A stretch of 64,000 nucleotides of DNA from Rhizophagus irregularis (lineage: Eukaryota), in assembly GCF_026210795.1 (NCBI RefSeq), contig NC_089431.1, positions 4,154,001 to 4,218,000 of the forward strand, written 5' to 3'. Positions 6,183 to 62,067 of the stretch are shown piece by piece. The notes under the pieces were generated by a model. That model worked only from the letters and a program-made list of their open reading frames with translations, did not search any database and was not told where the DNA came from. Each line of letters starts with the position of its first letter. The stretch's first letter is position 1. Position numbers and translations under genes: made by a program.

Positions 6183-7371
6183 AATGGATACTGAAAAGAT
6201 TATAATAAAAAGAAATATATTTCCACATTAGGTATTGACATAATTAATAATTTAGTAAAGCAACACGACAAACAATTTAAAAATAGAGAATTCTAGAGCA
6301 TTTGTAGAATTCTAAGAATGTTTTATTGATTTATAGAATTTACAATCGAAATTCTATAATGAAATTTTGTAAATAAATAAAGTTTCAATTTTGCTTGGAA
6401 AAATGTTTATTTATTTGGATCAATATTGTTTACGTTGTACAATAAAGAATGTTTTCTTGTTATACTTAAAGATTTAACAAATATGGTATTCGTCTACTTT
6501 ACTTTAAGCTATTGCACAAAATCCTACATAGTCGTCATATTATTTGAATAATAAATGTCAATTTATATAATTTGCATTTAATTGATTCTCATATGTTATA
6601 ATAATCATTCAGAAAAAAATAAAAAAAAATTGGCAAAGAATACATACAGTATCGATCCAAATAATATTCATGTAGGACATCATTAAAACGTATGGATTTA
6701 CAAAAGTTCCTGAATTATGGGATTATATATTCAGTTAGTTATGAGATATGCGCCAGGAGGAGATTTACATAAGTATTTGCAGAAGAATTTTAAAAATATT
6801 AGAATCAAAAAATACATATTTTAAATCAAGTCTCATATGGGTACTTATATTTTATATTTACTGATTATACTCTTTAAATTAGGTTATTAATTTTTTATAT
6901 TTTTTAGGTAAAAAATTTATGCATCGAGATTTCCATAGTGGAAACATATTATATGATTTAGGTAGTCGTGATAGATGGAATTTTAATCGACTATTCATTA
7001 TTGAATGGAAAATTAGAGATTTAGGATTATCACAAGCTGTAAATAATAGATCATCAAATAATGAAATATATGGAGTAATACCTTATATTGCACCAGAAAT
7101 CTTTAAAGAGTCTAAATTTTCTCAGAAAGCTGATATTTATGGGAACTTACTACGGGTAGTAAACCTTTTGCTAATGTTAAACATGATATTCATCCTAGAT
7201 GTAAGATTATTGATGGAAAACGACCTAAAATTACAAGATGATACACCAGAATGTTATGCCACCTTAATGAAAAGTTGTTGGGATCCTGATCCCAAAAAAA
7301 GGCCTTCTATAAAAAATATTTATAATACTTTAATTATGTATTTGGCTATTTGCTCTCAATTTAAAATATAA
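6183..7371 (+). pseudogene. TKL protein kinase pseudogene
   Basis: Kinase fragments YGFTK, MRYAPGGDLHKYL, HRDFHSGNIL, DLGLS, PYIAPE and CWDPDPKKRP are separated by frameshifts and deletions. Confidence 0.8.
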
Positions 7372-8374
7372 AAAATAAAAAAAAATTATTTTATTAAGTG
7401 TCAATAGTACATAATTATTTATATTTTATATTGCGTGATTGTTTAAAAAAACCTTTTACATTAATGATCACCTTCGGTCTTGAACCCAAAGGTCTACAGT
7501 CCTCCGGCAAAAGAATCGAATAAATTATTTAGCAAGTTTGAAATTATTTCGGTAAACATTCAGATGGCATTATTTTTCTTGTATTTTTATATAAATGTTG
7601 TTGTTTTAAGTTTATCGATGAACTAATATCATATTTTATGAATTTTTCTTTATTAAATAAAGACTCGTAGTCAATTTATATGAATACATGTCGAGAAAAA
7701 TAGAGAAACTATTAAATAATCTAAATTAATCATGGCAAAGATCACTATTATGATAATTGTAGACTAACGTTATTTTTATACACCCTATGTTAAAGATTGT
7801 ACAAAAAGTATACAAGGATGTGAAAGTAGTATTGAAAAATAAAAACAATATTACCATCTAATAATTTAACGATTTTTTAAAATACTGTAACTGTTTTTAA
7901 TGATAAAAATGTTTTGAAAAATAAGAGTTTAGAATCGTAGCTAATTTGTGTAAGCTCATCTTTTTTTTTTAAAAAAAAAAAAAAATATCTCGTTTTGTGA
8001 ACAAATTCCGATTTTTACCAGAGCGAAAGCGGACTACTTTTGGAATTTGTGTACTGTTGATCGTCACGTGGGTCATACTCTGATTGGACAGTTTATAACT
8101 GGCGGAATACCAATTAGTAGCCAGGTGATAAAATACGACAGGCAGTCTGACTTTTAACAGATTATCTAAAAACGCGTGATATTTTCGATAACTACAATAA
8201 CTATTGATTAATCATTGACGCGTTTTGTAAATAATTATGTAATTATAACGCCAACGCCAACTTTCATAAGCTTAACCAATCAGAATTTGAGGATAATACA
8301 ATATATATATCCTATCTATGCGAAAATTAAAAATTTCAAGCCTTTTTTATTTATTTGCTGGCAATATAAAAAAA

Positions 8375-22324: not shown

Positions 22325-23075
22325 ATGTATCCTGCTACTATTTCCCTTTCCTTTACCTTACTCCTCTTGATGAGGTTTTTACCTCAAAAGCAGAATTTTG
22401 AGAAAAAATTTTTTTACCAATAACCAATCAGAGTATAATTTGATTTCTTTCCGAATAGAATCATGTAATAAAATTCAGCGGCGGGCAAGATCAGTTGTTC
22501 AAGATCAGTTGTTTCTGGCAGGATCAGTTATTTCATGTGCAGACATACTGATTCGTGATATCGTTTAGGTCATATGTGCTTTGACCACATTTACTGCTTT
22601 AATCATGTTAGAGACTGCGGCATTACATCATTATGTAATTATGTAACATTTTTACTTTGTTTACATCATGCTTTTTTATTTTTTCATGTTAAAAATCATT
22701 AAGGAGTTCTTATATCCAGATCCACGCAGTACATAATCTTAATCTCTGTAGAATTTTTCTAGAACTGCATCTAGAAAAGAATGAGAAAATTTTTTTACTT
22801 TGTTCGTTGGAATTACAACTGAATTTGTACTTACGCCACATTATAATTGTCCTACGTATTGTACATGAGAGTACATATGAGCATTCTTTGAAGGAATTCT
22901 TTCATTTTCCAAGATACATTTTTTAAATTAGTTATTAACTTTTTGGGTTAAAAACTTCCACGAAGAATTATTTGTAAAATTTATATAAATTTATTATTGA
23001 AAATAAATTTATAAATTGGACTACATTCTCAAATGCCTCAAAATAAACCTAATTTTTTTCAAAACAAATTAATAT

Positions 23076-24964
23076 ATGATGGAACAATTAACAAATTATA
23101 AACATAAAATTGACTTTTTACTATCAGATAATATGCATTTATGTCAACCAGCACAAACCACGGTTAAACAAAATAGAAAAACATATAAAAAATGTAATGA
23201 ATGTTATAAAAGAAAACCATTTGCTGATTATCAGATTTGTCGCATGTGTTACAAATCAAAAATAGCTTTTAAATCAAGTGGAAATAAGGTTATTGATAAT
23301 TTTATCAAATATACACAAATCAATTATTCATCCCGAGATGGAAAAATGGAGTTTGTTCCCTATAATCAATTCAAAAATATAGAATTTATTGCTGAAGGAG
23401 GATTTAGTAAAATTTATAAAGCTACTTGGGTTGATGGTCCAATCAAAGGTTGGTATATACGTGATGGTGCGAATATTTCTCGTAATAATAATTATACTGT
23501 TGTTCTCAAAAAACTTCACAATTCTGAAAACTTTACACCAAAGGAACTAAATGAGGTACAGTACATGTAATATTTTAAATATTCAATATAACAATGATGT
23601 TAAATTAAGGATTTTTTATTTAGCTCAAGGTATTTTATCAGATTTATTCAAATAGAGAAACTTCTAATGAATTCATTTGCCAATATTTTGGAATTACTCA
23701 AGATCCTATTACCAAGGATATTATGATTATTATGCCATATTATGACTTAGGTGACTTGATACGCTACATAAGTAATGATTTTTATAATATTTGTTGGGAT
23801 ACAAAGTTGTTTAAATTACGTCGTATAATATATGCACTTAATAATATCCATAATTCAGATATTATTCACAGAGATTTACATAGTGGAAATATCTTTATAA
23901 GTGGAAGGTTTGCATATATAGGTGATCTGGGAATAAGTAAATCTGCAACTGAATCTACAGATAATAATGAGAATTATGGTATTATTCCTTATATGGCACC
24001 AGAGATTTTTCAAGGACAAAAATATACAAAAGCTTCAGATATATATAGTTTTGGAATGATTATGTGGGAGCTTATGACAGGTAGAAGACCTTTTTGGGAT
24101 CGAAATCATAATACATATCTTATTATTGATATTTGTGATGGTTTACGACCACCAATTGTCACAAATGCACCTGAAGAATATATTGAATTAATGAAAGAAT
24201 GCTGGCATTCTGATCCGGAGAAAAGGCCAACAGCCATTTATATATTTAAAAAACTTCTTAATATGTCGGGTTTGATAATTGAAATTGTAAAATCATCAGA
24301 TATTGGTCCTGTAACAACTAATCATTCAGGTGCTGTTTATAGGAGTAGACCTTTAAATAAAATGATTCATTCCGCAATGTCTTTAAGGAGTTCAAGAAGT
24401 CTGCTGTCTACAAATTTAGAAACTGGTAAACAATTATAATATTATTTATTATAAATTATTTAATTTTGTTTATTTATGTTATTATTAATAATCATTATTT
24501 CTTTTAAAGGTAAAAGAAAGTTTGAAGATCTAGTTACAAAAAATGATGACGATGGTATTATGGATAATAAAATTTATGGTTTTATTCTGTAATTAACTAA
24601 ACAAACTTCCAATAAATCAAAAACTTTATAGGTCAATGTATCAAAAAGAAAAATTTATGTGAAAATGAAATTAATGGTAAATAATTATTATTAATTAACG
24701 AATTTATTAGTATTTTTTAAAATTTACACTTTTATATGTTTCTCTAGAATATCTTACGAACGAAATTGAATTTGATGTTAATGTGAATTTTAATCAATCC
24801 CATAAACCTCATAATAAAGGTAAATAGTGTAAATAGTTTATTGGTGTTTTTAATAATATCTTAGTAATGAATGCTTTTATATGTTATAACCATTTATTTT
24901 TTAATTGAATATAGATTACATCACTCTGGAATTTGAACTTGATATCGATTTTAATAATCCTTGA
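23076..24964 (+). CDS. Tyrosine-kinase-like (TKL) protein kinase, apparently intact, 6 exons
   Basis: Exons 23076-23555 and 23624-24425, then four small 3' exons ending in TGA at 24964. Motifs GGFSKIY, VLKKL, HRDLHSGN, GDLG, YMAPE; N-terminal CxxC..CxxC. Confidence 0.92.
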
Positions 24965-27203: not shown

Positions 27204-28750
27204 TTATTCAATTACAATTTGAAATATCTCATATTCTTCTACAGAAAATTTACCTCCAATTTCTCTGATCGATTTTTCATAAGATTTTTGTTTAAAGTAA
27301 CTAGTTTTATAAGAATTAAAATCCTCACCCCTCAAAATAAGATCATTACTACCAATTACCAAATGATGGTCCATTATTAATATAGCACTATATTCATCAA
27401 AAACATAACTTAAAATATAATTTCCAATATTATCACTATTATCATTATCATTTTTAAAAGAGAATATAAAACTATTAGCAGTGCTATAATTATAATTGAG
27501 TTCCCAAATTGTTGGATTATACCCTCCAAGAATTTCATTACTATTTTTAACCTTAATAATTGTTACGGTATTAGATTGATTATCACAAATTTCATGAAAT
27601 TTAATAGGTGTAAACCCATCACGAGATCCACGAAGCATTAAATTGAATTCGTATGAAATTATCTTATTTGTATTATCTGTATTATCTGTAATATTTGTAA
27701 TATTTGTAATATTTAATTCATCAATCCACTTTGAGATTAATTCAGCATGTTGATGCGTAATAATTTTAGAATCAATATTTTTAAATTCATTTCTCTAGTT
27801 ACATGTGGTCTTGGTTTACTATTAGGATGTAAACTTAAATGATTTATTAATAAATCCTTATATAATTCTTTCGATAAAATTTTTTTATAAGGTAATACTT
27901 TATCTAAAAATTCCTTGGAACTTAAATTATAAAATCTTATAAAAGGAATATATTGTTGTAAAGTATTTTATAATATATTGAAATCATCTTTTGAGAAATT
28001 TGTAGGATCAGAAGGAATTCCTGGATTTTGTGCATGTCCCCATTTAAGTACGTGTTCCCATACATGAACTTCACCCATTTGAAAATTATCATTTTGAATA
28101 AGTGTGATCAAAATTTTTTCCGAAATTAAAGAGAAATCCATTGAATTAAATATTTTATCCGGTTCTTTAGATATTAAATCGGTACAAAATTTTTGAAGTT
28201 CTAAAAACGAATCATTTTCAAATAATGTTTGATATATCATGTTAAAATTTTGTCCCAACCAATTTGCATATTTTTCAATCAAAAAAGATTGTAAATAATT
28301 AACTAATTCTTGAAGACTTAATTCATTAGCAGCAACTAAGATTTTAATGATATCATTAGCATCATGTTCCTCTAATGGAAGTCTTCCTCCATAAATATAC
28401 CTTAAAAATCGAAATCGGTGAAAAAAAAAATTTTTTAAAAAAAAAATTTAATTATTAAATAACATCATAAATTATTAAAAATTCTTTCCCACCTTAAAAT
28501 TGTTTGAAAAATATCGGGTAAAATATTTGGTAATTTAATATGTACCAAATTTTCATCATTATTCTTTAAAATTCTTCGTAAATGAGGTGAATGATGATTT
28601 AAAATAACTTTATGAGCTTGAAAGATTTTTACGTTAGGATCATTACCAACTTCAATGGTAATATCACAGTATTCGTTGTCATTCAAACTTTCGAGATAAT
28701 TCTGAGATAATTTTGGCAAAAATAATTTTGGTAAAAATTTATTGTTTATT
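27204..28750 (-). pseudogene. BTB-BACK-TLDc pseudogene
   Basis: Same two-exon structure as its paralogs. No ATG at the homologous start, premature stop at 27968 and further frameshifts. Confidence 0.85.
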
Positions 28751-29397
28751 ATAATTATTTTCTTCTCTTTCTCTTTTTTTTTTTCTGGGAAAAAGGAAAA
28801 TTATAATTTGATCAAAGGTAAATTGGCAATAAATCAGGAAATCATAGTTGCACAACATTGTAAATCCGGATTATAAGCCCAATTAGATTTGATAAAACAA
28901 TGAAAGATTAATGGTAATTTGTCATTATTATAGCATTGTATTGTGGCAAAGGTTACCTGTTTCTCTGTTGTAAAAAATCAAACACATAGTGTTCCACATT
29001 GTGGTAAATCCGTAAATATAAACGTGAAAATTTATATCGTGATATTATCCGATTTGGACCGCCATCTAAGCCATCTAAGATAGGACGAGATGAATTATTA
29101 GATAGAAATGCAGTAGCCGTATTTTCTGATCGTTAACGATCATGATGTTTCGTTCGTAAATATTTGTTATCATTTGATGTAATGTTGAAAATTGAACAAT
29201 TCAATTGAAAATAAAATGTCAAAATAACCAAATAATTTCGTTTCTCGCCCCTCAAATGCAAGCAGTTCATTAGATAATTTTTGTTTTTTTTTAAAAAAAA
29301 AATACAAATTAAGAAATATACATAACAACGAAATGATCCTGAATTTCTACGTGTAAATACAAGAAAACTATATAACATAAACACACTAAATTAATTA

Positions 29398-30852
29398 TCA
29401 ATTTTTGATTACCAAGAAAACTTCGTATTCTTCTATAAAAAAATCACCATCAGTTTCTCTGATCGATTCCTTATAAGAATTTTTTATACAACTACTACTT
29501 CTATATAAATTATTTAATGATAAAATAATGTCCCCATTACCAAATGATGGTCCATAATTAGGATTATTAAATATGGCGAAATTTCCATCTTTTATACGAC
29601 TTAAAATATGATCTTCAAGGTTATCATTATTCTTAAAAGAAAATAAAAAGCTATTATTAGTGACACCATAACTATTAATATTAGAATTCCACGTTATTGG
29701 ATTATATCCTCCAAGAATTTCATCACTATCTTTTACTTTAATAATTGATACCGTATAAAATCTATTAACACAAATTTCATGAAATTTTTTTGGTGAAAAT
29801 CCATCACGAGATCCACGAAGTATTAATTTGAATTCATATGTAGAATTCAATTTATCAGTAATTTGTAACCCATTGATCCATTTTGAGATTAATTCAGTAT
29901 GTTGAAGCGTAATAATTTTTGAATCAATATTTTTACGAAGTTTTGATTTACCGATTGGCTTGTTATCAGGATGCACACTTAAATGATTTCTTAATAAATC
30001 CTTATACAAATCTTTTGGTAAAATTTTTTTGTAAGGTAACACTTTTTCCAAAAATTCTTTAGAAGTAAAATTATAAAATTTAATAAGAGGAATACATTGT
30101 CGTAAAGTATCCTTTAAAATATAGAAATCATTTTTTGATAAGTTTGTAGGATCAGTTGATAGTTCCTGATTTTGAGCATGACCCCATTTAAGTGCATGTT
30201 CCCATACTTGAACTTCGTTCATCTGAAGATTTTCATTTTGAATAAGCGAGATCAAAATATTTTCTGGTATCGAAGTGAAACTTAATGAATTAAATATCCT
30301 ATCCGGTTCTTTGGACATTAAATCATTACAGTATTTTTGAAGTTCCAAAAAAGAATCATTTTCAAAACTCGTTCGATATATCAAGGTAAAATTTTGTTCC
30401 ATCCCATTTGTATAGTTTTCAATAAGAGAAGATTGTAAATAACTAACTAATTCTTGAATATTAAGTTTGTTCGCAGCAACCAATATTTTAATGATATCTA
30501 AAATATCATATTCTTCCAAAGGAAGTTTCCCCCATAAAGATACCTGAATTTCAAAAATCTTTTAAAAATAAATTCTTATATAAATTCACATATAGTACGT
30601 CCTCTTACCTCAAGATTATGTGAAAAATTTCTGGTAAAATATTTGGTAATTTAATATGGACCAAAATTCCATCATTTTTCTTATTAACTGACAAAATTTT
30701 TCGTAAATAAGGTTTAAAATTACCATATGAGCTTTAAATATTTTTACGTCAGGGTCATCACCAACTTCAATAGTAATATCATAATATTCGTCATCATCTA
30801 ATATTTCAAGTAAGTCTTGTAATAATTTTGGTAAGAATTTATTATCAACCAT
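29398..30852 (-). pseudogene. BTB-BACK-TLDc gene with frameshifted exon 1
   Basis: MVDNKFLPK..KAHMVILN then a deletion/frameshift near 30710. Exon 2 (29398-~30543) is largely open, with BACK and TLDc motifs. Confidence 0.8.
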
Positions 30853-31259
30853 TATATTGAGGAGATTGTTGTTTTGAAGAAAAAAGAAAAACAAACGTGA
30901 TCGTGTATGGTAGGGTAGTATGGTAATTGTCAACCTTATAAATCTTTTTTTCTGAATCGGGAAATCAAGATCGCACATCGTTGTAATGAAGTTGATATCT
31001 TAATTAAAGAAAATTTAATATTATGGGTCAGTCGGTATAGAACTTTCTGCAAATTCGCTTTAATAATCATTATCCCTTTGTTTTTTTTTTTAAAAAAAAA
31101 AAAAGATTCAATGCAATTCGTTCGATGGAAATGAATGAATGATCTGAATGATACGGGAGGTTGGATCACGTGATAAAGGAATTTAAGTATAAATAGTACG
31201 CCACACAAACTCCCCTAAAAAAACCAAAAAAAAGTTTAAACCACAACTATAAACGAAAC

Positions 31260-32795
31260 ATGATAATGGATTTAAAGGATTATGAGTTTTTGCCTCAATT
31301 ATCTCAAAATTTACTTGAAAGTTTGGACGAAGACGAATATTATGATATAACTATTGAAGTTGGTAAAGATCCCTACGTAAAAATTTTTCGTGCTCATATG
31401 GTTATTTTAAATCGTCGTTCTCCTTATTTGCGAAGAATTTTATCAACTAATAAAAAGTACAATGATGGAAACTTGGTACATATTAAATTACCAAATATTT
31501 TACCAGAAATTTTTCATATAATTTTAAGGTGAAAGGAGAATTAAAACTATAAAATAATTTAATTAATATTTTACAATATTTTTTTTTTAATATTAAGTAA
31601 AAAACTTTTTTTTCTTTTTTTTTATTTTAGGTATATTTATGGGGGGAGGCTTTCTTTAAAGGAATATGATACTGCAGATATCATCAAAATCTTGGTGGCG
31701 GCTGTTCAACTTAACCTTAAGGAATTAATAATCTATTTACAATCATTTTTAATTAAAAACAAATCCGATTGGATGGAGAAAAATTTTAACCTTATATATA
31801 GGACGAGTTTTGAAAATGAATCTCTCTTGGAACTTCAAAATTACTGTAATAAACTTATTTCAAAGGAACCAGAAAGGATGTTTGAATCACAAAATTTTTC
31901 TTCAATTCCAGAAAAAGTTTTGGTCTCGCTTATTCAAAATGAAAATCTTCGAATGAGTGAAATTGAAATTTGGGAACATGTTCTTAATTGGGGACTTGCA
32001 CAAAATCCGGAACTTCCATCTGATCCTGCAAATTTTTCGAAGGATGATTTTAGTTTATTGAAAAATACCTTAAAATCGTATATTCCTTTTATTAGATTTT
32101 ACGATTTAACCTGTAAGGAATTTTCGAAAAAAGTATTACCTTATAAGAAAATTTTACCAAAGGAATTATATAAGGATTTATTGGATACATTTTTAGATTT
32201 ACATCCTGATAGTAAACCTGATAAATCAAACCCTCGTAATTCTAATAGTTCAAAACATATTGATTCTAAAGTTATTACATCACAACATGCTGAATTAATA
32301 TCGAAATGGATTGATAGATTAGAAATTACGGATAAACTGACTTCTTCATATGGATTCAAATTAATTCTTCGTGGATCTCGTGATGGGTTTACGTCTCGTA
32401 AATTTCACGAGGTGTGTGATGATCAAACTAATATTGTAGTAATTGTTAAAGTGAAGCAAAGTAATGAAATTCTTGGAGGGTATAATCCAGCCACGTGGAA
32501 ATCTGGTTACCGTTTTAGCACTACTAGAAATAGTTTCATATTCTCCTTTAAGAATAATGATGGTATTGAAAATTTTATTTTAAGTCGTGTAATGGATGAA
32601 GAGTATGCCATACTTAATAACCCTACCTGCGGTCCTTCGTTTGGTAATGGTGACCTTATTTTGTCAGGCGAAGAGAGTTCTTCTGGTTATTGTGAAAGTT
32701 ATTGTGAAAAAAGTTCTTATGAGAGGCTTATTAGGGAAACCGAAAGTGAATTTTCTGTAGAAGAATATGAAATATTTCAAATTGTAAAATACTAA
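31260..32795 (+). CDS. BTB/POZ-BACK-TLDc domain protein, intact
   Basis: Exon 1 31260-31528, intron 31529-31630, exon 2 31631-32795. Motifs LRGSRDGF, FHEVCD, GGYNP, GPSFG, EEYEIF. Confidence 0.92.
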
Positions 32796-34460: not shown

Positions 34461-36736
34461 ATGGCAAATTTAGATGAAAATAATCAAGGTGAAAGTATGG
34501 AATTATTAGGCGTGATTTATGGTATAGGAATGAACGTTAATAATATAATAGGAGTTGGTTTGTATATTTATATTTACTGATTTTAAAAAAGGAATATCAA
34601 TACTAGATTTAAAAAAATGATTTTAAAATATATATGCAGGCATTTTTACAACTCCCGGAATTGTTTGGAAACAGGTAAAAACGCCTCATGTCGTTATATT
34701 ATTATGGCTAGCCGGTGGGATTGTAAGTCTATTTGGTTCCCTTATTTATACCGAGGTAAACAACATTGTCTATATATAAATGAATTTTTTTTTAAAAAAA
34801 AAATTATGTCGATTTAACTGTTCTCTGGTTTAAAAAAAAAAAGTATGGAGCCCTACATAGAGATAATGGTGGAGAAAAAATTTATTTGGAAAAAGCATAT
34901 CCATCACCACCATTAATGGCAAGCTACCTTTTTAGCTTCATGTTCATATTGTGAGTATAATAATTATTTTCGTAAAAAAAATTTATAAACTCTCCATATA
35001 ATTAATTTATCATGGTATTATTTAGCGTGATTCGACCCGTGATTATATGCGCAGTATTACAGTCTGCTGCGCAATATACATGGTATATGTTTGTTGGAAC
35101 CTCTCCATTGGATGGAGATGACAAAATAGATCCACTCTTAAATGGTTGGCAAAACAAATTTAAACCTTACTGGTATTTATTTTAAATTTATATACAATCT
35201 GTAAATTCTTTTTATTTTCATTATTTAAAATCCTTAAATAATTTCTCTTATTCATAGGATATTGAAATTGATAGCAATTTTTTTTTTGTTATTAATAACA
35301 GGATATCATTTGTTAAATAGAAAATTGGCAAATAAGATAAATCATGGTCTTGCAATAACTAAAATGATCGTGATATTGGTAATTGCATTGGGTGGAATAT
35401 CAAAGTATCATAATAACGAAAATTGGAAGAAACCTTTAGATGATAATTCGATCAATACAGCCGTTAATTCTTATCCTATTGCAATTATTCAAATTTTATT
35501 TAGTTATAACGGATGGAACACTCTAAATTATTCTTTAGATGAATTTAGAAATCCTGAAGTAAAATTAAAACTTAGCAATATTTCTAGTATTGTAATTGTA
35601 ACGATATTATGTAAGTTTTTTTTTAAAAGTATTTTTTTTTTGAACAAAACGTTGTATCTTTTATCTAATCACTTACTTTTATCAGATTTATTGGCAAATG
35701 TTGCATTTATTACTGCTTTACCATCTGATGTTATAACAAAAACCGAACATTTTAATGAGACAATTACAGCAGATTTCTTTAAAAGTATTTTTTTTGACAG
35801 TAATGTTGCTGCAAGGGTATTATCACTTTTTGTTGTTCTTTCTGCTGTTGGTACTGCTGCAACAAGTGTTTGGAGGTATTTAGTGTAAATTTTTCATTTT
35901 TAAAAATTTTTTTTTTTTAAAAAAAAAACATATTAAAAAATTTTTTTTTGATTAGTGGATCAAGAGTTATTGTGTCAGCGGCGAAATCAAATTTTTTTCC
36001 AATCTTTTCACCACAATTAGTAAAGTGGAGAGAAAGGGAGATAAATCAGCAAGGGCAAAGAGGGGAAAATATGCGATATACTGAATATACGCCAGTTAAC
36101 GCGTTATTAGCGCAACTTGTATGGTGTATATTCATTATATTAATCGTTGGTGGATCAATACAAGTTGATAGTTTCGTGCTATTCACTTCAATAGCAACTT
36201 TTTCTGTCTGGATATTTTACATTGTTACAAGCTTGGGTTTAGTTGTAAGCATAATTCAAATTCATTTTTTTTTTTATTATTTAACATTTATTGTTATTTT
36301 TTATTCATTTTTTTTTTAAAAAAAAAATTTTTAGAAAACACGAAAAAGATATCCTGGTAACCCTCCATTCAAAGTACCACGTTCAATAATTCATTTGTTT
36401 ATAGTTTCGGGATTTCTATTTATTGCATTATCATTTGTCCCTGATAAAGAATCAATACATCCGTATATAGTTCAAATATCATTTATCTTGGTTAGTTGTA
36501 TATTTTTATTTATTGGATTTATTTGTTATTTCGGATTATTTCGACAGCAACAGCAACCGATACAACCGCAACAGATACAACTACAACCGATACAACCGCA
36601 ACAGATACAACCGCAACAGATACAACAGCAACAGATACAACCGCAACAGATACAACCGCAACAGATACAACCGCAACAGACACAGCAACAACAGATACAA
36701 CAGCAACAGATACAACAGCAACAGACACAACAATAA
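34461..36736 (+). CDS. APC-superfamily amino acid permease (LAT/Mup1-like), about 8 exons
   Basis: GMNVNNIIGVG/IFTTPG, GGEKIYLEKAY, LFSYNGWNTLNYSLDE, SGSRVI, TPVNAL, PFKVP; many TM segments; GT-AG introns. Confidence 0.9.
36545..36733 (+). repeat. 15-bp coding tandem repeat encoding (QPQQI)n
   Basis: About 12 copies of CAACCGCAACAGATA immediately before the permease stop codon. Confidence 0.95.
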
Positions 36737-45510: not shown

Positions 45511-46443
45511 TTTTCTTTTTATTTCTGAATTGTTTATATACTAAATTCTATAACTAGGAAACGGGAACCGTTGTAAGTCCAGAACGAAAAACTAAAATTT
45601 GCCGATTTCATTGGGTGACGATCACATGGCGGACAGAGAAACTCACGTGATCGATTTTTTTTCATAGTGCGTAGACATATATTGTCCTTCGCTTCGCTCT
45701 GGACAATAAAGTTGTTGACCTTTTGTAGTTGTTTAGATACCTAATTTTATGTTGAGATGCTGACTTCTTGCACCTAATTGGGTGCTGGATTCTATATTGG
45801 AGTACTTACTCTTTGTGAGCATAGCAGACATGCTCATATCACCTTACTGATTATTTACTGATTACTAGATTCTGCAAAATATCTGATTCGATTTGAATCC
45901 GTGAATTAGATCTGAATCAGATCTGGATCAAATCATTAATTTATAATCCATAAATCTGATTAGACCAAAAAATAATGATCCGATTTGAATTGGATTAGAT
46001 CTGAATCAGATCTGAATCACATTTTGAATCATTTGAATCAAGCAATAATAGCTATCCGAAAATTTTTTTTAATCCAAGAAAAATGTTTTATTTAACAATT
46101 TAACAGAAATAACATTTTTTCTTTAGAACTCTTAAAAAAACCAATTTTTTTTTAAAAAAAATCTCACTAACTCTTTAAAAAAGAGTTTCTGTAAAAAATG
46201 AGAAGGAACGTCACGAGTCTAATGATAACAAATTGGCAACCAATCAGATGCTAATAGCCTTTCTTATTGGACTCTGACCATTTTTATGAATGCCAATTGT
46301 GGTCAATTAATGGCGCAAATCAAGATAAAATCGGAATGCAATATTGGCATTAAATGGGAGAACTAATTTATATATATCAGAATTTACCAATAATATTAAA
46401 TTGTTAAAATCAATTGCATTTAATAAGTAAATTTATATAAATA

Positions 46444-48119
46444 TAGTGCTCCGAAAAAAATCTGATCTGATCTGGGATCCGCAGATTTGATCCAAGTCAG
46501 ATCAGTTTGGTTTTCAAAATTTTGATCCGTAAATCAGATCAGATTTAAAAAAAATCTGATCTGATCAAATTCAGATCAGATCAGATCAAACACAAGAAAA
46601 TCTGATCTGATCTGAACAGATTTCGGATCAGATTTTTTTTTTAAATTAAAATTTTTTTTAAAAAAAAAATTCATTTTTTTAAAAACCCTTTCCTGGACAA
46701 ATGGACGCCAGACGACCAAGATTTAAAAGAACGAACTAGGTAAGTTCATTTCTTTTTTTTTATTATTTTTACTTGAGGGAACTTAATTAACGGTTTTCTT
46801 CTTTTTTATTAGGAAGCCTAGATGAACGAAGCCTAACGACCAGGATTTAAAAAAAAAGAACGAACCTATGGTGAGTTCGTTCTTTTTTTTAAGGTTTTTT
46901 TTTATTTTTTATTTAAGGGAACGTAATTAACGTTTTCTTTCTTTTTTTTAGGAAACCTGGACGTAAACAAAGTCGTTAACGACCAGGATTTAAAAAAAGA
47001 ATGAACTATGGTAAGTTCGTTTCTTTTTTTAAGTTTTTTTTTTTAATTTACTTAAGGAAACATAATTAACGTTCTCTTTCTTTTTTTTTAGGAAACCTGG
47101 ATGTGGACGAAGCCATTAATGACTAGGATTTAAAAAAAGAATGAACTATGGTAAGTTCATTTCTTTTTTTAAGTTTTTTTTTTATTTTTACTTAAGAGAA
47201 CGTAATTAACGTTCCCTTTCTTTTTTTTTTAGGAAACCTGGACGAACGAAGTCGTTAAGATGTTAACAACCAGGATTTAAAAAAAAGAACGAACTATGGT
47301 AAGTTCGTTTCTTTTTTTAAGTTTTTTTTTAATTTACTTAAGGGAACGTAATTAACGTTCCCTTTCTTTTTTTTTTAGAAAACCTGGACGTGGACGAAGT
47401 CGTTAATGACTAGGATTTAAAAAAAGAATGAACTATGGTAAGTTCATTTCTTTTTTTAAGTTTTTTTTTTAATTTACTTAAGGGAACGTAATTAACGTTC
47501 CCTTTTTTTTTTAGGAAACCTGGACGTGAATGAAGCCATTAATGACCAGGATTTAAAAAAAGAACGAACTATGGTAAGTTCATTTCTTTTTAAGTTTTTT
47601 TTTTATTTTTACTTAAGGAAACGTAATTAACGTTCCCTTTCTTTTTTTAGGAAACCTGGACGAACGAAGTCGTTAAGACGTTAACGACCAGGATTTAAAA
47701 AAAAGAACGAACTATAGTAAGTTCGTTTCTTTTTTTTAGGTTTTTTTTTTATTTTTACTTAAGGGAACGTAATTAACGTTCCCTTTCTTTTATTTTTAGG
47801 AAACCTGGACACGAGACAAAGCTAAACGACCAGGATTTAAAAGAACGAACTATGGTAAGTTCATTTTTTTATTTTTATTTTTATTTTTTTTACTTTAAGA
47901 AACGTAATTAACGTTTCCTTTCCTTTTTTTAGTACAAGGACCAGATCTGAACCAGATTCGGATCAGATTCAAATCGGATTCAAATGGATCCGAACCAGAT
48001 TCGGATCAAATTGAACTAGATCTGATCAGATTCGGATCAGATCAGATCTATTAAAATAAAAATCAAATTAGATCAGATTTAAGTTAAATCCAGTCTGAAC
48101 CGATCTGTTAAGAGCACTA
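46444..48119. mobile_element. Non-autonomous hAT element nested in the larger hAT
   Basis: TAGTGCTC..GAGCACTA termini, perfect 8-bp TSD TATAAATA (46436-43, 48120-27), dense TCAGATC subterminal repeats at both ends. Confidence 0.92.
46700..47935 (+). repeat. Tandem array of ~140-bp intron + micro-exon units (9 introns)
   Basis: GTRAGT donors at 46740, 46871, 47011, 47151, 47299, 47438, 47574, 47717 and 47855. Each is followed by TAATTAAC, poly-T and TAG. Confidence 0.9.
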
Positions 48120-48221
48120 TATAAATATATTGCTCAAATTTATTTACATTATAAAAACAATTAAAATACTAATTTAATATATTAAATGTCCTATAATATA
48201 TAATACATAAAGTATTACTCT

Positions 48222-49095
48222 CGAAACTTATTATCTAATCCAAGAGAACCTACAAAAAGAAGTAAAATAAAACGTTAATAATGTTTCTTAAAAAAAATTA
48301 AAGTTTCAAAATTTCAAAGTTGAAACTTATCGATCAAAAGCCCAAAAGAAACTGATATCTAAAAAAAAAATAAAATTAAGCCAATTTAATTTTACCAATC
48401 CAAAAGGCAGTATTAAAGCCGATACCTAAAAAAAGAAATAAAAAAATGTTAGAAAAAGTTATTTTTTTAAAAAAAACAAAGTTTCAAAAAAACAAAAATT
48501 TTGAAATTTACCCGATCTAAGTGAAGAGTCTCACCGATACCTAAAAAAAGAATAAAAAAAAAATATTAGAAAAAAGTTTTTTAAAGTTTTGAAAGAACAA
48601 GAACGAAACTTTAAAACTTAGAAACTTATCCAATCCAAGTGAAGGGTCTCGCCGATACCTAAAAAAGAAATGAAAAAAAATATTAGAAAAAAAATTTTTA
48701 GTTTCGAAAGAACAAGAACGAAACTTTTGAAACTTACTAATCCAAAGTGAAGGGTCTTGCTGATACCTAAAAAAAGAAATAAAAAAACATTAGAAAAAGT
48801 TTTTTTTTTAAAAAAAATAAAGTTTCAAAAAAATGAAAATTTCGAAACTTACCGATCCAAAAAAAGATTCAAAAGAAGAACGAAACTTACCTATTCAAAA
48901 GAAAGGTTGAAGCCGATACATCATACATACCTAAGAAAAAAAGAAAAAAAATTAAATTTATTATTTTAAAAAAAACAAATAAGTTTCAAAGTAAAACCTT
49001 CAAAACTTACTGAATCTAAACTAAAAAATGTTTCAAAATAAATGAAATGAACGAAACTTATCAATTCAATTCAAAGAAAGCCGATATCTAAAATG
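48222..49095 (-). repeat. Tandem array of ~110-120-bp intron + micro-exon units
   Basis: On the minus strand, repeated GTAAGTTTC..CTAAT..poly-T TAG|GTATCGGC..TTGGAT units. Confidence 0.75.
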
Positions 49096-49625
49096 GAAGT
49101 GTTTTTTTAAAAAAGGAAAAAAAGTAACTTTTAAAAGCTCAAAAAGATTATCTTTAGACACAAACCATAATTGACTAGGCTGATCTGCCAATTGATTTAT
49201 TTTGCTGATTTTGCCATTAGTCAAAAATTTTGACAATTCTTTTTTTTAAAAATTCATTAAAAGATGGGTATGTTTAATTGTTTTAAAAAAAAAATTGTGC
49301 ACTTATCCCTTTTTTTATAAATTCATTTAAAAAGGGGCAGATTTTTAGATGTTAGAAAAAAAAATTTTTATTTCATTAATTTCATTATAAAGGATGTCCC
49401 TTTTTCTTTTTTAAAAATTCATTAGAGAGTGAAGTAATTATATTTAAGAAAATTTTTTTTTTTTACTAGCACTTTTCCCTTTTTTATAAATTCATTTAAA
49501 TGGGCCAATTTTTATATAGAAAAAAAATTTTATTTCATTATAAAAGAATGAATTTTTTAAAAATGTTAAAAAAGAAATTTTTTTTTATCACTGATTTACC
49601 CTCTTTATAACATTATTAATACACT

Positions 49626-51860
49626 ATGGAAGTCGGTGATGATGATAATGGTAATGAACAAGATTTTGAAAATGAAGTTTTACTGACAGTGGAAAGTTTT
49701 AAAGGTAGTATTGTCTAGATCTATTTTACAAAAGATCCTGATTTTAAAGAAAATAAGAAGGCCACCTGCAAACATTGTTCTAAAGTTTATGTGTATTTTG
49801 GGGGCAACACATCAAATTTAAAGAAACATTTAAAAAAACATAATATACAAATGAATTAAAATCATGGACAAGACATTAGAGAAATGTTTAGCTCTTCTAA
49901 GGTATATGTCTTTACTTTATTTCTTGTAAAGTTTTTCAAATTTGAATTTCCATTATTAATAATAGTTATTAATTAGTGGGTTTATAATAATGATACAATG
50001 AGAGGAAAACTTGTCCAATAGGTTATAATGAATTAACAACCCTTTAGCGTTGTTGAAGAACTAAGTTTTATTGAGTTTATGCATTCATTCCATCCCAGTG
50101 CCTTGGTATCCTTAGTAGACACGATCAAGAGAAACATTTACAATCTTTACAAAGTAAATGTTAAAAAGATTAAAGATATTTTGCAAATGGTGCCAGAAAA
50201 GATATTATTTACAACCGATATCTGGACTTCCCTCTCAACCAAATCTTTCCTGTCCTTAACTGCCCATTTCATTGATAAAGAATGAAAGTTATGAAGTGTG
50301 ATAGTTGACTTTATACAAATGTATAGATCTCACACTGGCAAAAATATTAAAAATACATTCATATTAGGATTAGAAAATTTGTCAATTGAAGATAAGGTAA
50401 TTACTTATTCTTAAATTTATTCTTAAATTTAAGTTAGAATAAATATATTTAATTTGTTTATAAATTTTATAGCTATTTGGAATTACTCTTGATAATGCCT
50501 CAAATAATCAAGTATTTATTAATGAATTAAGTAAATGGGCAGATCAAAATCATATCATTTTTAACAGTGAAAACTACTTTAGATGCTTTGTGCATACAAT
50601 TAATATAGGTGTACAAGAATTTTTAAAATATTTAGATCAAGAACTAGGTTTAAGTCAGGTTAGAATTTTTTTATTTTACTTAATTTTGGTTTATTAATTA
50701 ATAATTTAATTTATTCATTTATAGCTCAGGCAACTTCTTAATAAAATTTGTGCATCTACTCAACGGTGTGAAAAATTAAGCCTTGCATGTAAGAATAATA
50801 GTATTGATGATTTAAAACCTATAATAGATGTGCCAACAAGGTGGAATTTGATGTGTGAAATGATTTCAAGAGCTTTATTAATAAAACCTGTAAGCTTTTT
50901 TACGTACTATATTTACTGTAATTTTGTATTATTACTTATTACTTTTCAAATTAATTATTTATTGGGCTCTTGATATTACTGCAATATCTGATCATGATCT
51001 CAAAAGCTATACACTTACAGAAGAACAATGGAATGGACTTAGAAAAATAGTGGATTTTCTTGAACTATTTAAAGAAGTAACAGCAGTAATTTCAGGAAGT
51101 ACATATTCAACACTTTTTATGATGATTCTATTATTCAATTTTTTAATTAATCATGTAGAAGATATTATTGGAGATGAGAATGAAAAAGTTAATGATGAAA
51201 ATGATGATGAAAATGATGATGAGAATATACGAATTGAAAAATCAATAAAAAAAGCTGCTAAATATTGCAAAGATAAATTATTGAAATACTATGTCAAGAC
51301 AAATAACGTGTATTCAATAGCAGTTATCTTAGATCTGAGATTAAAAATACAATATTTTAAAGATGAAGAGTGGGATGATGATTTAATAAATGAAATTAAT
51401 CAAAAGTATGTACTTTTAAAGTTTTTGATATATTTATTTAATAATTATATTAATCATTAATTTTTTATTTAGTTTTGTGAATATTTTTAATTCTAATTAT
51501 GCCACTACCTCCTTAAATTCCAACATTTCCTTCACCTCAAAAGAAAAATCAGTAATATCACGTGTATTTAAACGTCACTATGGAAAATGTAGATAAATTT
51601 AAAACATATATTGCTTTACCAACTGTTTCTGGTAAAACTTTGGATCCTCTCAAATGGTCGCGAATTAATGAAACTCAATATCTACAACTTAGTAAGATGG
51701 CCCATGATTATTTAGCTATACCTGCTACAAGTGTACCATCAGAGCAGTGTTTTTCAATTTCAAAAAATTTAATTACAAACAATAGAAACTGTTTAATAGG
51801 AAAAACAATAAGAATAAGTATATATTTGAAATCCTAGAATTATTTATTGAATAATGAATA
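49626..51860 (+). pseudogene. hAT transposase pseudogene (zf-BED, DDE, dimerisation domain)
   Basis: ATCKHC..TSNLKKHL, FTTDIWTS, DNASNN, RCFVHTIN, DVPTRWN, PATSVPSEQCFS; introns; several premature stops. Confidence 0.92.
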
Positions 51861-53331
51861 AATAATTATTTATTTTTAAAATTATATTATTTTTTTTATT
51901 TTATTTTATTTTTTTCTTAGTATTATAAATATAAGTATCATGTCAATAAAGTAACTAATCTAATATCTATCTATATAACTAAAAAAGATTAAGTGAAATA
52001 TAATTAATGACTATAGAGAGGTTGGCTAAATACACTTTTTTGAATAATAGTGTAGTTAGCCGAAATATTCACAGATAACTGTAACATTTTGAATTGCTGT
52101 TTCGTATTCTTTATAAGACCCGCTTGATCAACAAATCATGTTGTACATATTGTATATCTAATAGAATTTTTTTTTTTTTTTTTTTTTGATTATTAAATTA
52201 CCGATTTATTTTTTTTTCAAATATTTATTTTTTTCATCATTTTTTTTTTAAACCTATTTTTAAATTTTTTTCCTTTTCTTTACCATTCTTTTTTTTCTTT
52301 TCCTCTTTCTTTTTGATTTGGTTTTTTTTTCACCAAGAATTTTTTTGGTTTTTTTTCATTCTTTTCCCGTTTATTTTTCCAAACTAAAATTTTTTTTTTT
52401 TATAAATAATTCTATTGTTTTAGTCTTTTAAGACCGATTTTTTTTATACTATTTTTTTTTCGGTCTTTATTTTTAGACCATATTATTAAAAATTTTTTTT
52501 CAGTCTTTTTGAACCTTATTTTTCAGAATTTTTTTTGGTACCTATTTTTTTTATGAATTCCTTTTTTTTCAAAAATTTCCTTTTTTTAAACCAATTTCTT
52601 TTTTTATCCTTTTTTTTCCCCTAATTTTATTTTTGTTTTTTTTTCAAATTTTCTTTATTGTTATTTTTTTGGGGTTTTTTTCGAATTTTTTAAAACCTTT
52701 TTTTTGAGTTGGTTTTTTTTCCAATTTGAAAATTCTTTTTTCACTTTTCTTTTTTTGGATTAGCTTTTAACTTTTTTTCCAATCTGAAAAATTTTTCTTT
52801 TTTTGGTTTGGCTTTTTTTTTGTTTTTTCCTGAACCATATTTTAAACCATTTAGATTTGGATCAGTGATCAGATTGATGCTGCAGCACCACAGTAATTCT
52901 TCTTAATAAGAATATTTTCTCTAATTATTTTTTAGGTTCAATAATAGACTGACATATAATTTACTTATTTATTTATTTTTTGTAATAATAGATCTGACAA
53001 TAGATCGGAATAATTAATTTTCTAAAAAATTTTTTTTTTCATAACAATAGATTGTTATAATTGATTTTTGGAGGATTTTTTTTTACTTTAATTTTAAAAT
53101 ATATTATTAATACTTTAAAACTAAAATGTTTGCCATGAACCCTTTTTTTAATTAAAAATATAAAATTGAATCAGATTCAAATTGGATTTAGATTAGATTC
53201 AGATTAGATTCAGATTAGATTCAGATTAGATTTAATTTGATTTGGATCAAATCCAATTTTTTTAAAATAAATCAGATTGGATCAAATCTTACTATCTAAA
53301 TCTGATCTGATCTGATCTGTGCGGAACCCTA

Positions 53332-54728
53332 CTAGTACCTGAATATTTCATAGCGTTACTGAGTTTCTTGAAGTATTTGAGGTTTCCTTGCGGGATGGTA
53401 CCACATCTAAAAACACTGTGCGCCTATCATCATTCTCCATTCTGAAAACATTTTCATTAGTTAGGACGATGGTAGACATAAAGTTCTTGTACTATATTGG
53501 TGTCTTGTGTTTTCATGGATTTCCATTATGCCACCTATTACCTTATCCTTCAAAGAGCGATACAGATTATTTCACTGGTTTTTTTCTGTGGGTATTTCCT
53601 CGAGAAGGAGAAGGACCTTGCCTTGTAACTGCGCATTGAAACTACTAAGAATCGTCTGAGGATCGCTGGTCTTATAAATGAGTTGAGTGTCTAGGATACT
53701 GCGTTAGATGAAATCTGTTATAATACTCTTATCCCAATCCTGTCCTGATTTCAGGTAAAGAATTGAGTACATCTTCCTTTCAGCAGATATACTGGCCAAC
53801 CATTTGATGATATATTTGGTGAGATTCCAATCACCTGAACACCAGATATCCTGAATATGGGAGAAGATAAACTTAACTGCAAGATGGATCTTAGATTCAA
53901 AGGTGGATATTGGACGCAAGATGTGGAGAAATCCTGGAAAGATATTCAAATAGAGTTGGCCTGTTGAGGATCTGAAGATTCGCTGTTTATGAGGATCACA
54001 GATTGCAATTAAGGTTGCCTGCCTAAACCTCTCCAAAATTTTACGATTAGCTTTTCCAAGATTTTACTATAGTTTTATTATAGTTTTGGCAAGGTTTTGG
54101 CAGTTTCGGCATTTATAATAAGTTTTGTCAGGTTTTGCTTTTTTCCAGAATTTCGCCAACTTTTTAATAAGACTTTCATATAGTTTTGGCAAAGTTTCGC
54201 TATTTCAGCATTTCGCCAACTTGCCAAAACCTTCTAGTTTCTCCAGCAACCTTAGTTGCAATACATACATCGGTATTCTCATACATAAACCACTTGTAGA
54301 TGTTGAATTCAGTCTTTTAAGAGGGACTTTGTTCAGGTTGTATGTAGAATGCCTTAGTGATTGGATGGATAAGTTTACCAATATTTTTGTCAATAATATG
54401 TTTCAAACTTTTACTATCTGGGTCCTACCAGAAAACCCCATGAGGATCTGCATAGGAAATAAAATAACTGTAAAGATACCTCTTGACTTGATTGAGATCA
54501 CTCATACTCTTTGCAGCGATAATAAGCCATTTAAGCTCATTGATACTGAAGGCTTTCTTTTATTCGTCCAAACTTGAAAATAACTTGAACTTGAGTAGTT
54601 ATTTTTTGTTCTATCAAATCGAGATCTAATTTGTAGTTACTTAATCTTCAATTGCTGAATATTTTTCCAAAGATCTGCACTCCTACCTGGCTATTTCTCT
54701 GCGGCTCAACAGACTTTCTAGGGACCAT
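53332..54728 (-). pseudogene. D5-like (SF3) helicase-primase remnant
   Basis: LYLNIFPGFLH..DIWCSGD..IKWLA..ILYLKSGQDWDKSIITDFI (decayed Walker A), LLLEE (Walker B), VLTNEN..ENDDRRTVFLDV. Truncated by the hAT end and split by a MITE. Confidence 0.8.
54010..54254. mobile_element. hAT-type MITE inserted in the helicase gene
   Basis: TAAGGTTGC..GCAACCTTA termini; 8-bp flanks ATTGCAAT / GTTGCAAT. Removing it rejoins DVCIA to CDPHKQRIF. Confidence 0.85.
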
Positions 54729-58265: not shown

Positions 58266-60431
58266 AAAAACCTATCTTTGATCGTAAAATTGAGAGAAAT
58301 AAAAAGAATATAGTGAAAGAAATAGAGTGAAAGAAAAAAATAAAAGAAATAGAGCAAAGAGTTAAAACAAAAGAAATGGAGTAATAATGAAATGGCAAAC
58401 ATAAAGAAAAGGATAAAAGAAAGTTAGTAAAAATAAAACATAGAGAACAAAAGAAACCAAAATTGGAAAATGAAAAAATACCTTAATTGCGAAACTGGAC
58501 CAGATAGATTTCCAGAGTTGTTTAGCTATTCTTAAAAACTTTAATAATATTCTCAAATTAAAAAAAACTAAAAATAAATGAAAAAAAATGAAATGATACC
58601 TTGCAACATTAAAATCCAAGAGAATGTTCAAAGCAGCAAAGCCACTTCTAAAAAAAAATAAAAAAAAATTGCATTATACGTTGATATTACAATTGTTATG
58701 CATGGTGAATTTTACCATTTTAACAAAAAATTTAAATATTTAAATATTATGGTAAAATTCACCATTTGGTAAATTTATTATCTGGTAAATTTAACCACCA
58801 GTTATTGTTAAATTAATTCTAAATATTAATTAAAATATTGCAAAAAATATGTTTTTTTACTTTTTTTTTTGTAAGTTATAATAATATTATTTGGATTTTA
58901 ACTTAAATTTATTAAATAATTTTACTTAAGCAATAAAAATAATTTTTTAATTAAAGTAAAAAAATTATGCTTTAAAAATTTCTATATATTTTAATAATAA
59001 AAAATATAATAATATTTTTATAAATGCATTTAAATTATCAGAAATTTAAGGTAAAATTCATAATTTTAACTATATTATTCAAAGTTTTAATAGTAATTGT
59101 CCAGAGTGTAGTGAAGAACTATATAATTTTATGAAGGTCAATGACAATTAGTATTACATGGCGATTTCTGGTTGTTTGTACACGTCATTTCTGATTGGTC
59201 TGCATAGAATATGTATTGAAATTTCATGTTACATCAAAAATTAACAAGTTATGATTACCTTTTTTTTTTAGATTTTGGCTAGTAAGTATATTTTTCTTTT
59301 AAATAACTTTCTTATTGTTTTCTTGGGGTTTCTGGATTTCTTATACATATCAGACTAAAGCTCTGAATGGGTCGGTTCAGTTCAGTTTTAGTAAGGAACC
59401 AGAACCGGCCTGACATTCAGTTCCAGTTTTGGTTCAGTTCTTTGGATTTAAGCCCGACCTGAAACTAGAACCGAATTTTTAACCTGAATCGAACTGAAAT
59501 TATGGTTCGGTTCTTAATTAGATAATCAAAAGATTATCGATTTTTTTTTGTAAAAAAAAAAATATTCATCCGCTTCTTTAAAGTGCATTTCTTCACGAAG
59601 AATTTTTTTTTTAGTTTATTGTTTTTTTTCGTTCCTTTTTGCGTTCCGTTTTGCTAAATTCGTACATTTCTTTTCTTTTAGGTCTCAGTTCTTGCAACTC
59701 TTCACGGAAAGAAGGTGTTACTTTTTTTTGGTTTTTTTTGGTTTCCGTTTCTAATTTCGTACACCTCTCTTCTTTCTTCGTTTAGATTTTCCGTTCCTTG
59801 AGGTTTTCCTTGCGAAAGGTTCCAGTTCCTTGGAAAGGCAAGTTTTTTTTTCTTTTTTTTTGGATCCCTTTTCTAATTTTGTACGCCTCTCCTCTTTCTT
59901 CATTTAGGTTTTCCGTTCCTTGCGGTTCTTCTTACGAGGGCTTCGGTGGCAAGTATTTCTTTTCTTTTTATTTCTTTTTTTTTTAGATTCCTTTTCTAAT
60001 TTCGTACGCCTCTCCTATTTTTTCATTTAGATTTCCATTCCTTGCAGTTCTCCTTGCGAAGGGTTTCAGTTTCTCATTGCATTTCACAGAAATGTAAGTG
60101 TATTTTTTCTTTTTTTCTTTTTTCTTTTTTTTTGGGGTTTCTTTTTCTAATTTCGTACGCATCTCCTCTTTTTTTGTTTAGGTTTCCATTCATCATGTAA
60201 AGGCTGGTGTGTATTTTTGTATTTCATTATTTCAGTTTTTTTTTTTTTGTTTCTGTTATCCTTTGTTAATTTTATCCTTCCTCTCTTTTTTTTTAGGATT
60301 TCAGTTCCTTACGATTCCATTGGAAGGTAAATAGTTAGAGTATTTCTATCGCGTCTCTTTTTTTGTTTCTTTCATTCTTCTTTACTAATTCCATCTTTCT
60401 CTAAGTTTTCAATTCTTGCGGTTCTTCGTAG

Positions 60432-60540
60432 AAGTCTATCAAATGGAGCTGTTGCAGTACGACTTACCGCACCAGTTATCATACCAGCGAGAAGATATTT
60501 TAGATCAGTTGGTGGTATTATTACTTCACCATCCATATTA
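60432..60540 (-). other. Captured fragment of a Ca-binding mitochondrial ATP-Mg/Pi carrier (SAL1/SLC25A24-like)
   Basis: NMDGEVIIPPTDLKYLLAGMITGAVSRTATAPFDRL matches carrier helix 1 and the start of the Px(D/E)xxK signature. No other carrier sequence nearby. Confidence 0.8.
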
Positions 60541-60620
60541 TCACCTGTATTATCGCCTGTATTATCGCCTGTATTATCATCTGTATTGTCACCTGTATTA
60601 TCACCTGTATTGTCACCTGG
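60537..60620. repeat. 12-bp tandem repeat (TATTATCRCCTG)n
   Basis: About 7 copies; reads (GDNT)n on the minus strand. Confidence 0.9.
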
Positions 60621-62067
60621 GCTATGACTTTGTAGTATTCGAAATTTCTGGACCGCAGACATGGTTTGATTTGGTCTACAACACCAAAGGCGGCTTTTCT
60701 TTAGTTTTATTTCAAGGATCTTTAGTTCCTTTCACCAATTCTTATAGATTTTCATTCTTTGCAGGTAAGATATTTTTCTTTCTTTTTTTTTTTTTGTTTA
60801 TTCATTATCCTTTGCTAATTTCGTCCTTCTCTTCCTTCAGGCTTTTGCTTCTTTTGCGGCTCTTCATGAGAAGGTGGGTATTTATGATATAATTTTTTTG
60901 TCTTCTTCTTTATCCTTTGCTAATTTCGTCCTTCTTTTCTTTTCCTTTAGGTTCTTTGCGATTCTTTGAGGATACAGGTGTTTATTTTTTTTATTTTCTG
61001 TATTTTTTGTTTTCTTAAATTTAGGATTTTGATTCTTTGTACTCTTCAGAGAATGTATGTTTATCATTTTTTTCTTTTTTCGTATTCTTTTTTTGTTCTC
61101 TTGCTAATTTCGTCATTCTCTTTTTTTTTCTTTTTTAGATCTTGATTTTTTTGCACTTTAAAAGAAGCAATGAATTAATTTAACAAAGGAAATAAAGGAA
61201 ATATACGAAATGAAACAAAAAATAAAAAAAATTGAACCACCTACTTTTCTGTAATCTTCATTTCTAATGATCTTTATGGATTCACGGGTAAGGTAGTTTC
61301 TTTTTAATTTTCTTTAATTTATTATTTATTTATTTTTTTCTCTGTCCGCCATATCACTAATATTAACAATTACTTTATAATATTTTTTTAATTCCCTATC
61401 AAAAAACTGTCATGTCACATGTTCATGCGCCAATATAAATGAACTACCCAATATTATTTTTAACGTCCAAATTCTTTTTTTTGATATATAAATGGCAAAA
61501 AAATTAGCATAAAAGTGGCCATTAACTATATTAACTATGTTGCTGAAGCATAGGACTGTGCAACTGAAATTTTGCCTAGCATATTTTTAATTTTTTTTTT
61601 ATTTTATAGTTTTTTTTTAATTAAAATTAGAAATAGCTGTGCGTGTGACATGTAAGGATCGTATTCTTTATCTTCTTATATAAAACATTCAATTATACAA
61701 AATGTACGAAAATTAATTTCTAACAATAAAAAAAATTTTTTTTTGATTGATATTGCCGATTTTGATTGATGTTGCCAAAACATTGCGCCAATCAATTTTT
61801 TTTGCCAAAACATTGCACCAATCAATTTTTTTGATTGATATTGCCGATTATTCTGATTGATTATTACCGATTAAATATTGTGATTGATATTGTCATATTG
61901 CCGATTGATATTGCCCAATTTTTTTAGTAAATATTTCTATTTAAATGGTGTATAATATATATTTAAAAAAAAGATTTTGAGAAAAAAAAAAAGAAAAATT
62001 ATTTTTACATTAAATAATAAAATTTCTTTGATCCATCTTTCACCCCTCTTCTTTTCAAATACTTCAG

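Follow-up and report, generated by a model that had tools for sequence, protein, structure and literature searches.

How did a piece of a mitochondrial carrier gene come to lie inside a transposon of Rhizophagus irregularis, and does it act on the gene from which it was derived? Both questions arise from positions 60406–60764 of the window, the 64-kb stretch of DNA that was analysed. This block is the largest predicted exon (359 nt) of a tandem array of intron-like units on the plus strand (59600–61140), in which ten exons are predicted, the other nine being micro-exons of 25–63 nt. The preliminary description had placed about 36 minus-strand carrier codons within the block, and this reading was confirmed: positions 60539–60432 translate as NMDGEVIIPPTDLKYLLAGMITGAVSRTATAPFDRL, of which 32 of 36 residues (89%) are identical to residues 189–224 of the Rhizophagus EF-hand carrier P0007. 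A tblastn search of the window with P0007 recovered the same residues with E = 8e-14, in agreement with the proposed Sal1-type origin. Among 5.8 billion proteins searched with the fragment peptide, the best named carrier was matched with E = 1e-8; four rows above it were repeat-driven, and one was a carrier piece without a name. The best carrier matches (81%–89%) were EF-hand carriers of Rhizophagus clarus, R. irregularis, Glomus cerebriforme, and Funneliformis, which have EF-hands and Mito_carr domains; for P0006, P0007, P0008, and P0013 the match at 81%–89% included the linker before helix 1. One member of the carrier cluster is named 'SCaMC-1-like'. Pfam Mito_carr was found at positions 6–28 of the peptide (E = 3e-4, below the gathering score), a PDB sequence search returned repeat-driven matches only (E = 0.74 or worse), and an exact 22-nt carrier pattern had zero matches in metagenome contigs. 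We take the parent carrier to be Sal1, presumably with the ATP-Mg/Pi function of the Ca-regulated SLC25A23-25 type.

The larger captured piece of the Sal1/SCaMC exon occupies 60432–60537 on the minus strand and corresponds to residues 190–224 of P0007, that is, the linker and helix 1. A second tblastn piece (residues 176–199, E = 0.10) was found beyond a 12-bp repeat in a different frame. It includes FEYYKVIA (residues 179–186), so the repeat interrupts the captured exon; this smaller upstream piece lies at 60618–60648 of the minus strand, its upper end being approximate. The two pieces amount to about 137 nt of one exon, which exceeds the length given in the preliminary description. The latter had also described the fragment as fused to the 12-bp repeat; the repeat is present, but the arrangement is not a simple fusion, since carrier sequence continues on its far side.

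Four sequencing runs (X24, X17, X10, and X1) were compared with positions 59300–60960 at 80% likeness. X24 consists of raw poly(A) RNA reads, of which about 24% were read, and shares its species label with the best DNA run. X17 was guessed to be RNA by its label, but its contigs are unspliced and genome-scale, and it was therefore treated as likely DNA. A parent carrier gene of high nucleotide identity, which the preliminary description had proposed to look for, was found in X24, X17, and X10 at about 95%, and its form is intact and colinear in the X24 reads and the X17 and X10 contigs. Seven X24 reads and one contig each in X17 and X10 join 60537 to 60618, with 6 other nucleotides between these positions that restore the P0007 reading A-Q-V-S-M-D. 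The 80-nt repeat therefore replaces 6 nt within one parent exon; its interpretation as a parent intron was rejected, since the DNA-type contigs of the parent have 6 nt there. Parent-type reads show seven listed differences from the window in about 137 nt (94.9%), all of them transitions: six fall in the 106 nt of the larger piece, and one, at 60632, in the smaller piece, which these reads also cover. An X17 contig across 60438–60532 has exactly six differences from the window. The listed differences alter 3 of 35 residues, and perfect-match runs of 36 and 25 nt persist. X1, possibly the run from which the window originates (flat depth of 159.8, 48 million letters), contained no parent contig on the fragment in its filtered records, so the parent is documented from the other runs only.

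The open stretch of 35 codons, 89% identical to the parent, could also belong to a real minus-strand carrier gene or to the remnant of a duplicated gene invaded by the array. However, tblastn with P0007 detected no further carrier exon in the 64-kb window, only the two pieces rising above noise, and the EF-hand domain, the later helices, and the three carrier repeats are absent at the locus; the fragment is therefore not an exon of a carrier gene. An exon of a full carrier gene was rejected for the window on this ground. Both ends of the segment also lie inside one parent exon, which is unbroken in P0004 and contiguous across the parent joint in DNA-type contigs, the two pieces are shifted in frame, and 3 of 35 residues are changed. 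Compared with an intact Sal1/SCaMC carrier, the locus retains only residues ~179–224 of 520, with a frame shift and in antisense orientation relative to the element. We regard a carrier gene or its remnant at this site as extremely improbable.

The insert is likely composite. The 12-bp repeat is present in 7.0 copies at 60536–60619, and the 80 nt at 60538–60617 that take the place of the parent's 6 nt likely came from a second, transcribed locus. About 100 X24 reads match the repeat only, 67 of them with one common unlike end before 60535, and they differ from the window at several sites, including 60543, 60579, 60588, and 60591. The same 12-bp unit thus occurs in a transcribed locus elsewhere. 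A foreign origin of the repeat is favored, while a local one is the less probable option, suggested by the resemblance of the repeat unit to carrier sequence a few codons off. No Rhizophagus-named donor of the repeat appeared among the 120 of 166 listed protein matches that were scanned for motifs, most of the matches being nameless, and other protein searches for the repeat or third donors yielded only element-derived models and weak unrelated matches. Two of the seven units in the window have a CG-bearing form and five a CA form, as methyl-CpG decay would give. A 34-nt piece at 60653–60686 likely represents a third donor locus, since X17 contig(s) have loose ends before 60653 and behind 60686. 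Ten of its letters (60656–60665) also fit carrier codons T174-M175-S176 (P ~0.002 over 20 offsets), which makes the junction of this piece ambiguous. Adjacent sequences overlap by 3 nt at the array/carrier junction; repeat-type reads match the window up to 60535 on one side, where the parent departs at 60537, and up to 60619 on the other, where the parent resumes at 60618. Overlaps of 2–3 nt thus occur at all three readable junctions. The repeat and the 34-nt piece have matches at other loci, so the insert was likely assembled from several sources, its parts being joined at 2–3-nt microhomologies.

The surrounding exon begins with an array-type start (60406–60434, by unit alignment), the last 3 nt of which also form the last carrier codon, and closes with an array-like tail (60687–60764) that ends at a GT donor and shares 8–10-nt exact matches with neighboring units, although the assignment of this low-complexity tail is weak. 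Array exons and their splicing are predictions, and six public gene models use these exons. Nine branch-to-acceptor motifs were found on the plus strand of the array and none on the minus strand; 200 local shuffles averaged 1.5 and reached at most 5 on the plus strand. The units are tandem copies, and their motifs are therefore not independent evidence of splicing. In one public model, a further predicted exon (61252–61292, plus strand; residues ~167–177 of P0131) bridges the array and the beginning of the transposase. Similar arrays occur in related elements. A second hAT-like element of the window (46700–47940) has nine such motifs against a shuffle maximum of at most 2. L005, a 77% relative, has long inward-facing intron/micro-exon arrays at both ends (1–1050 and 4700–6400), with 8 motifs on the plus strand and 11 on the minus strand (shuffle maxima of 2 and 3); the two arrays consist of the same unit and form long inverted arms around the transposase. 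L012 and L014 contain only one and two motifs, respectively. The array at both ends of a relative without the Sal1 piece indicates that the array is a family trait older than the capture. The 25 longest of 768 inverted-repeat pairs included no long one by which the array could form a hairpin. Intron-like arrays at two ends are perhaps the less familiar feature.

The carrier piece is located between the left end of a hAT element and its transposase, as the preliminary description had proposed in attributing the capture to a hAT. The left terminal inverted repeat is at 59356–59375 (plus strand): six X10 contigs whose flanks are unlike meet at 59356, another contig starts matching there, and the first 16 nt of the element match the reverse complement of the right ends of the relatives L005, L012, and L014. 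The subterminal region (59376–59520, plus strand), as read from the sequence, is dense in short GGTTC/GAACC-type motifs, and the ends of L005 are similarly motif-rich. A hAT transposase pseudogene with introns and in-frame stops begins at 62068 on the plus strand and runs off the window at 64000. It encodes a zf-BED domain (E = 2e-7) and weakly resembles the Hermes DNA-binding domain (E = 0.07), and four of the six exons tested gave no hAT-specific match. The transposase region matched a copy, L001, at 97.8% as well as hAT-like relatives (L001–L024). In this part, 35 of 40 substitutions relative to L001 are transitions, and L001 has a stop of its own. The right end of the element lies beyond the window, and L001 ends before reaching it. 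The element is decayed and keeps a stop-broken transposase, being non-autonomous in effect only. Its earlier designation as Pack-type is thus apt as regards a host fragment in a hAT; it is not a classic transposase-free Pack element, since the broken transposase is retained. No carrier match was found in the 24 relatives L001–L024. On the minus strand of L001, at ~3150–3345, the right-end array starts with a unit whose exon is oversized, not of array type, and includes an open stretch of 35 codons. It is possibly a second captured piece; an Atlas search of this insert gave no usable match. At 59270–59356 the element was inserted into another intron-like repeat, and 51 X24 reads continue differently behind 59356, indicating that relatives of this flanking repeat are transcribed.

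Further copies of the insert were found in a second haplotype, with 13–14 differences in 304 nt, whose sequence in X10 and X17 runs across the same array/carrier junction. The element also underlies six NCBI gene models from R. irregularis and R. diaphanus; they are predictions and not transcripts, and four of them include the antisense carrier exon. In one of these models, P0131, predicted splicing links the array, the fragment, and the transposase start, so that the model holds both the host carrier piece and the beginning of the transposase. The copies have drifted differently, reading APAIAPA, APAIVPA, or APANAPA where the window has APVIIPA, and the number of 12-bp repeats varies among them from about 2 (P0140) to 7. 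Three clustered changes at 60476–60482 are common to the window and one X17 contig, and the parent letters at 60476/81/82 are kept in all three X10 contigs, P0131, and P0133. These shared changes are unexplained by a simple copy tree and may reflect gene conversion or strain history.

Such copies could have arisen without any role of the transposon, if the piece was a templated insertion into a resting repeat that was later multiplied by segmental duplication or is seen as alleles. This explanation agrees with the assignment of the majority of Pack-TIRs present as single copies to transposition-independent gap filling in the accessible text of PMC8277862, and no single contig links the second haplotype to a different flank. 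However, several different flanks join at 59356, and three models derived from the element are placed on contigs that differ in length within one R. diaphanus assembly (one locus-tag series), the carrier piece being visible in only one of them. We consider an origin independent of the transposon unlikely.

The best-supported reading is that the locus is a decayed multi-copy hAT that probably acquired about 137 nt of a Sal1/SCaMC exon as filler DNA by template switching, later spread it, and now carries it as a neutral passenger. A break would have occurred in the array, with repair synthesis starting in an array exon and switching onto the carrier exon. A brief switch onto the locus with the 12-bp repeat would have been followed by a return to the carrier exon 6 nt further on, and then by a switch onto the third locus and back to the array. 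The overlaps at the junctions agree with capture by template switching, and a median microhomology of 2 bp has been reported for the breakpoints of Pack-TIRs in the accessible part of PMC8277862. The captured piece was later likely spread along with the element, after which each copy would have changed on its own through slippage of the repeat and mutations that were mostly transitions. Located at the end of one array unit, the piece is now likely a neutral passenger; element-type RNA is nearly absent from the one RNA library, X24, although a single library of unspecified strain, about a quarter of which was read, cannot establish neutrality. If this scenario is correct, the insert preserves, within 330 nt, a readable record of likely multi-template repair.

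The preliminary description had also proposed that a spliced plus-strand transcript antisense to the carrier mRNA could silence or methylate the parent gene. In the X24 library the parent carrier is transcribed. At seven diagnostic positions, including 60476, 60481, 60482, 60502, and 60528, the parent letter was missing from 1/33, 1/31, 2/30, 1/30, 0/23, 0/11, and 0/7 reads. Nearly all reads carry parent letters, which puts RNA of the element over the fragment at no more than about 3% of parent RNA in this library. None of the eight joints listed (threshold of 3 reads or one contig) corresponded to a predicted array intron; the region compared, 59300–60960, stops short of the final array units and of the connection to the transposase. 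First mates were about equally distributed between the strands, so X24 is apparently unstranded, and as a poly(A) library it would miss small RNAs. The spliced antisense transcript is thus unsupported in this library, and expression at other stages may differ.

Silencing of the parent in trans by such a transcript, or by small RNAs of the element, agrees with several properties of the locus: the fragment is antisense to the element, the 36- and 25-nt perfect-match runs persist, the splice motifs of the array exceed those of shuffles, and the P0131 model joins array, fragment, and transposase start by predicted splicing. In addition, Argonaute-loaded small RNAs, with 49% of loci on transposable elements, are described in the available text of PMC8647823 for R. 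irregularis, and silencing of donor genes by captured pieces was reported in maize (PMC13317346, seen in part). On the other hand, only 0–2 X24 reads per site lack the parent letter, no array intron joint was listed, the parent is transcribed, and the available text of PMC8647823 places core genes outside highly methylated regions. RdRP small RNAs made from an antisense transcript would moreover have the polarity of the parent mRNA and be unable to pair with it. In Cryptococcus, stalled splicing can trigger siRNA, according to the accessible portion of PMC6643885. Silencing of the parent by the element is improbable; if real, it would show a transposon controlling a core mitochondrial gene in nature, in a small-RNA-rich fungus, and would be testable in strains with and without the element. 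Equally doubtful is the broader idea that inward-facing intron/micro-exon arrays at both ends of Glomeromycotina hATs act as exon traps, host pieces that were copied into an exon being spliced into the leader to give small RNAs against core genes, the carrier among them, or chimeric antisense-frame orphan proteins. The six Rhizophagus 'hypothetical proteins' predicted from the element array, four with the antisense carrier exon, bear on orphan-gene counts in any event.

The capture can be compared with known systems. A host gene captured by a hAT has been described before in fungi: histone H3 was transduplicated in Pseudocercospora fijiensis and other Dothideomycetes (PMC6710886, accessible text), and the Sal1 case extends such capture to a Rhizophagus-like genome. 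In both, a fungal hAT carries a host housekeeping sequence, amplified with the element in the histone case (PMC6710886, same text) and likely so in the Sal1 case, the copies are decayed, and the parent is intact. The histone H3 element contains a near-complete spliced transcript and has hundreds of RIP-hit copies (PMC6710886, same text), whereas the Sal1 insert is an interrupted stretch of about 137 nt, internal to one exon and linked to other pieces, and lies in an intron-like array with few copies seen. Animal Pack-TIRs are mostly hAT (208 of 370) or Tc/mariner elements, according to the available part of PMC8277862. They likewise hold short host pieces in TIR elements, with 1–3-nt microhomology (median of 2 bp at the breakpoints) explained by gap-filling or template-switch models, and antisense transcription was noted there in a few cases. 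They are mostly single-copy in that text, unlike the Sal1-bearing hAT, which has several copies and likely three donors and of which the left TIR, but neither the right TIR nor a TSD, was seen. Plant Pack-MULE and Pack-hAT elements also carry gene fragments in a TIR element and are often mis-annotated as genes, and plant Pack-TYPE elements can feed small RNAs against donor genes; as non-autonomous elements they are set apart from those with transposase hits, in contrast to the Rhizophagus element with its broken transposase (accessible texts of PMC8903248, PMC5861414, and PMC13317346). Neither hAT capture nor intron arrays in arbuscular mycorrhizal fungi are described in the accessible passages of PMC8647823, PMC11075540, PMC11952901, and PMC10234402, whose supplementary transposable element libraries may hold the family; a search of the open-access literature for either returned only unrelated papers.

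Other features were noticed elsewhere in the window. A complete small hAT-like element at 46445–48120 is bounded by the terminal repeat TAGTGCTC and an exact 8-bp target duplication, TATAAATA, and contains about nine 140-bp intron-like units. A larger decayed hAT (~45870–53335; Pfam Dimer_Tnp_hAT at 51556–51834, E = 6e-16) appears to enclose both this element and a minus-strand intron-like array at 48418–48857. At 1–1286 and 27204–32795, four genes of presumed BTB/BACK-TLD-like type form a cluster of direct and inverted copies, and what we take to be kinase-like genes lie at ~4000–7400 and ~23000–24400. A 15-bp repeat of 12 copies at 36548–36731 was read as the glutamine-rich tail of a transporter-like ORF.
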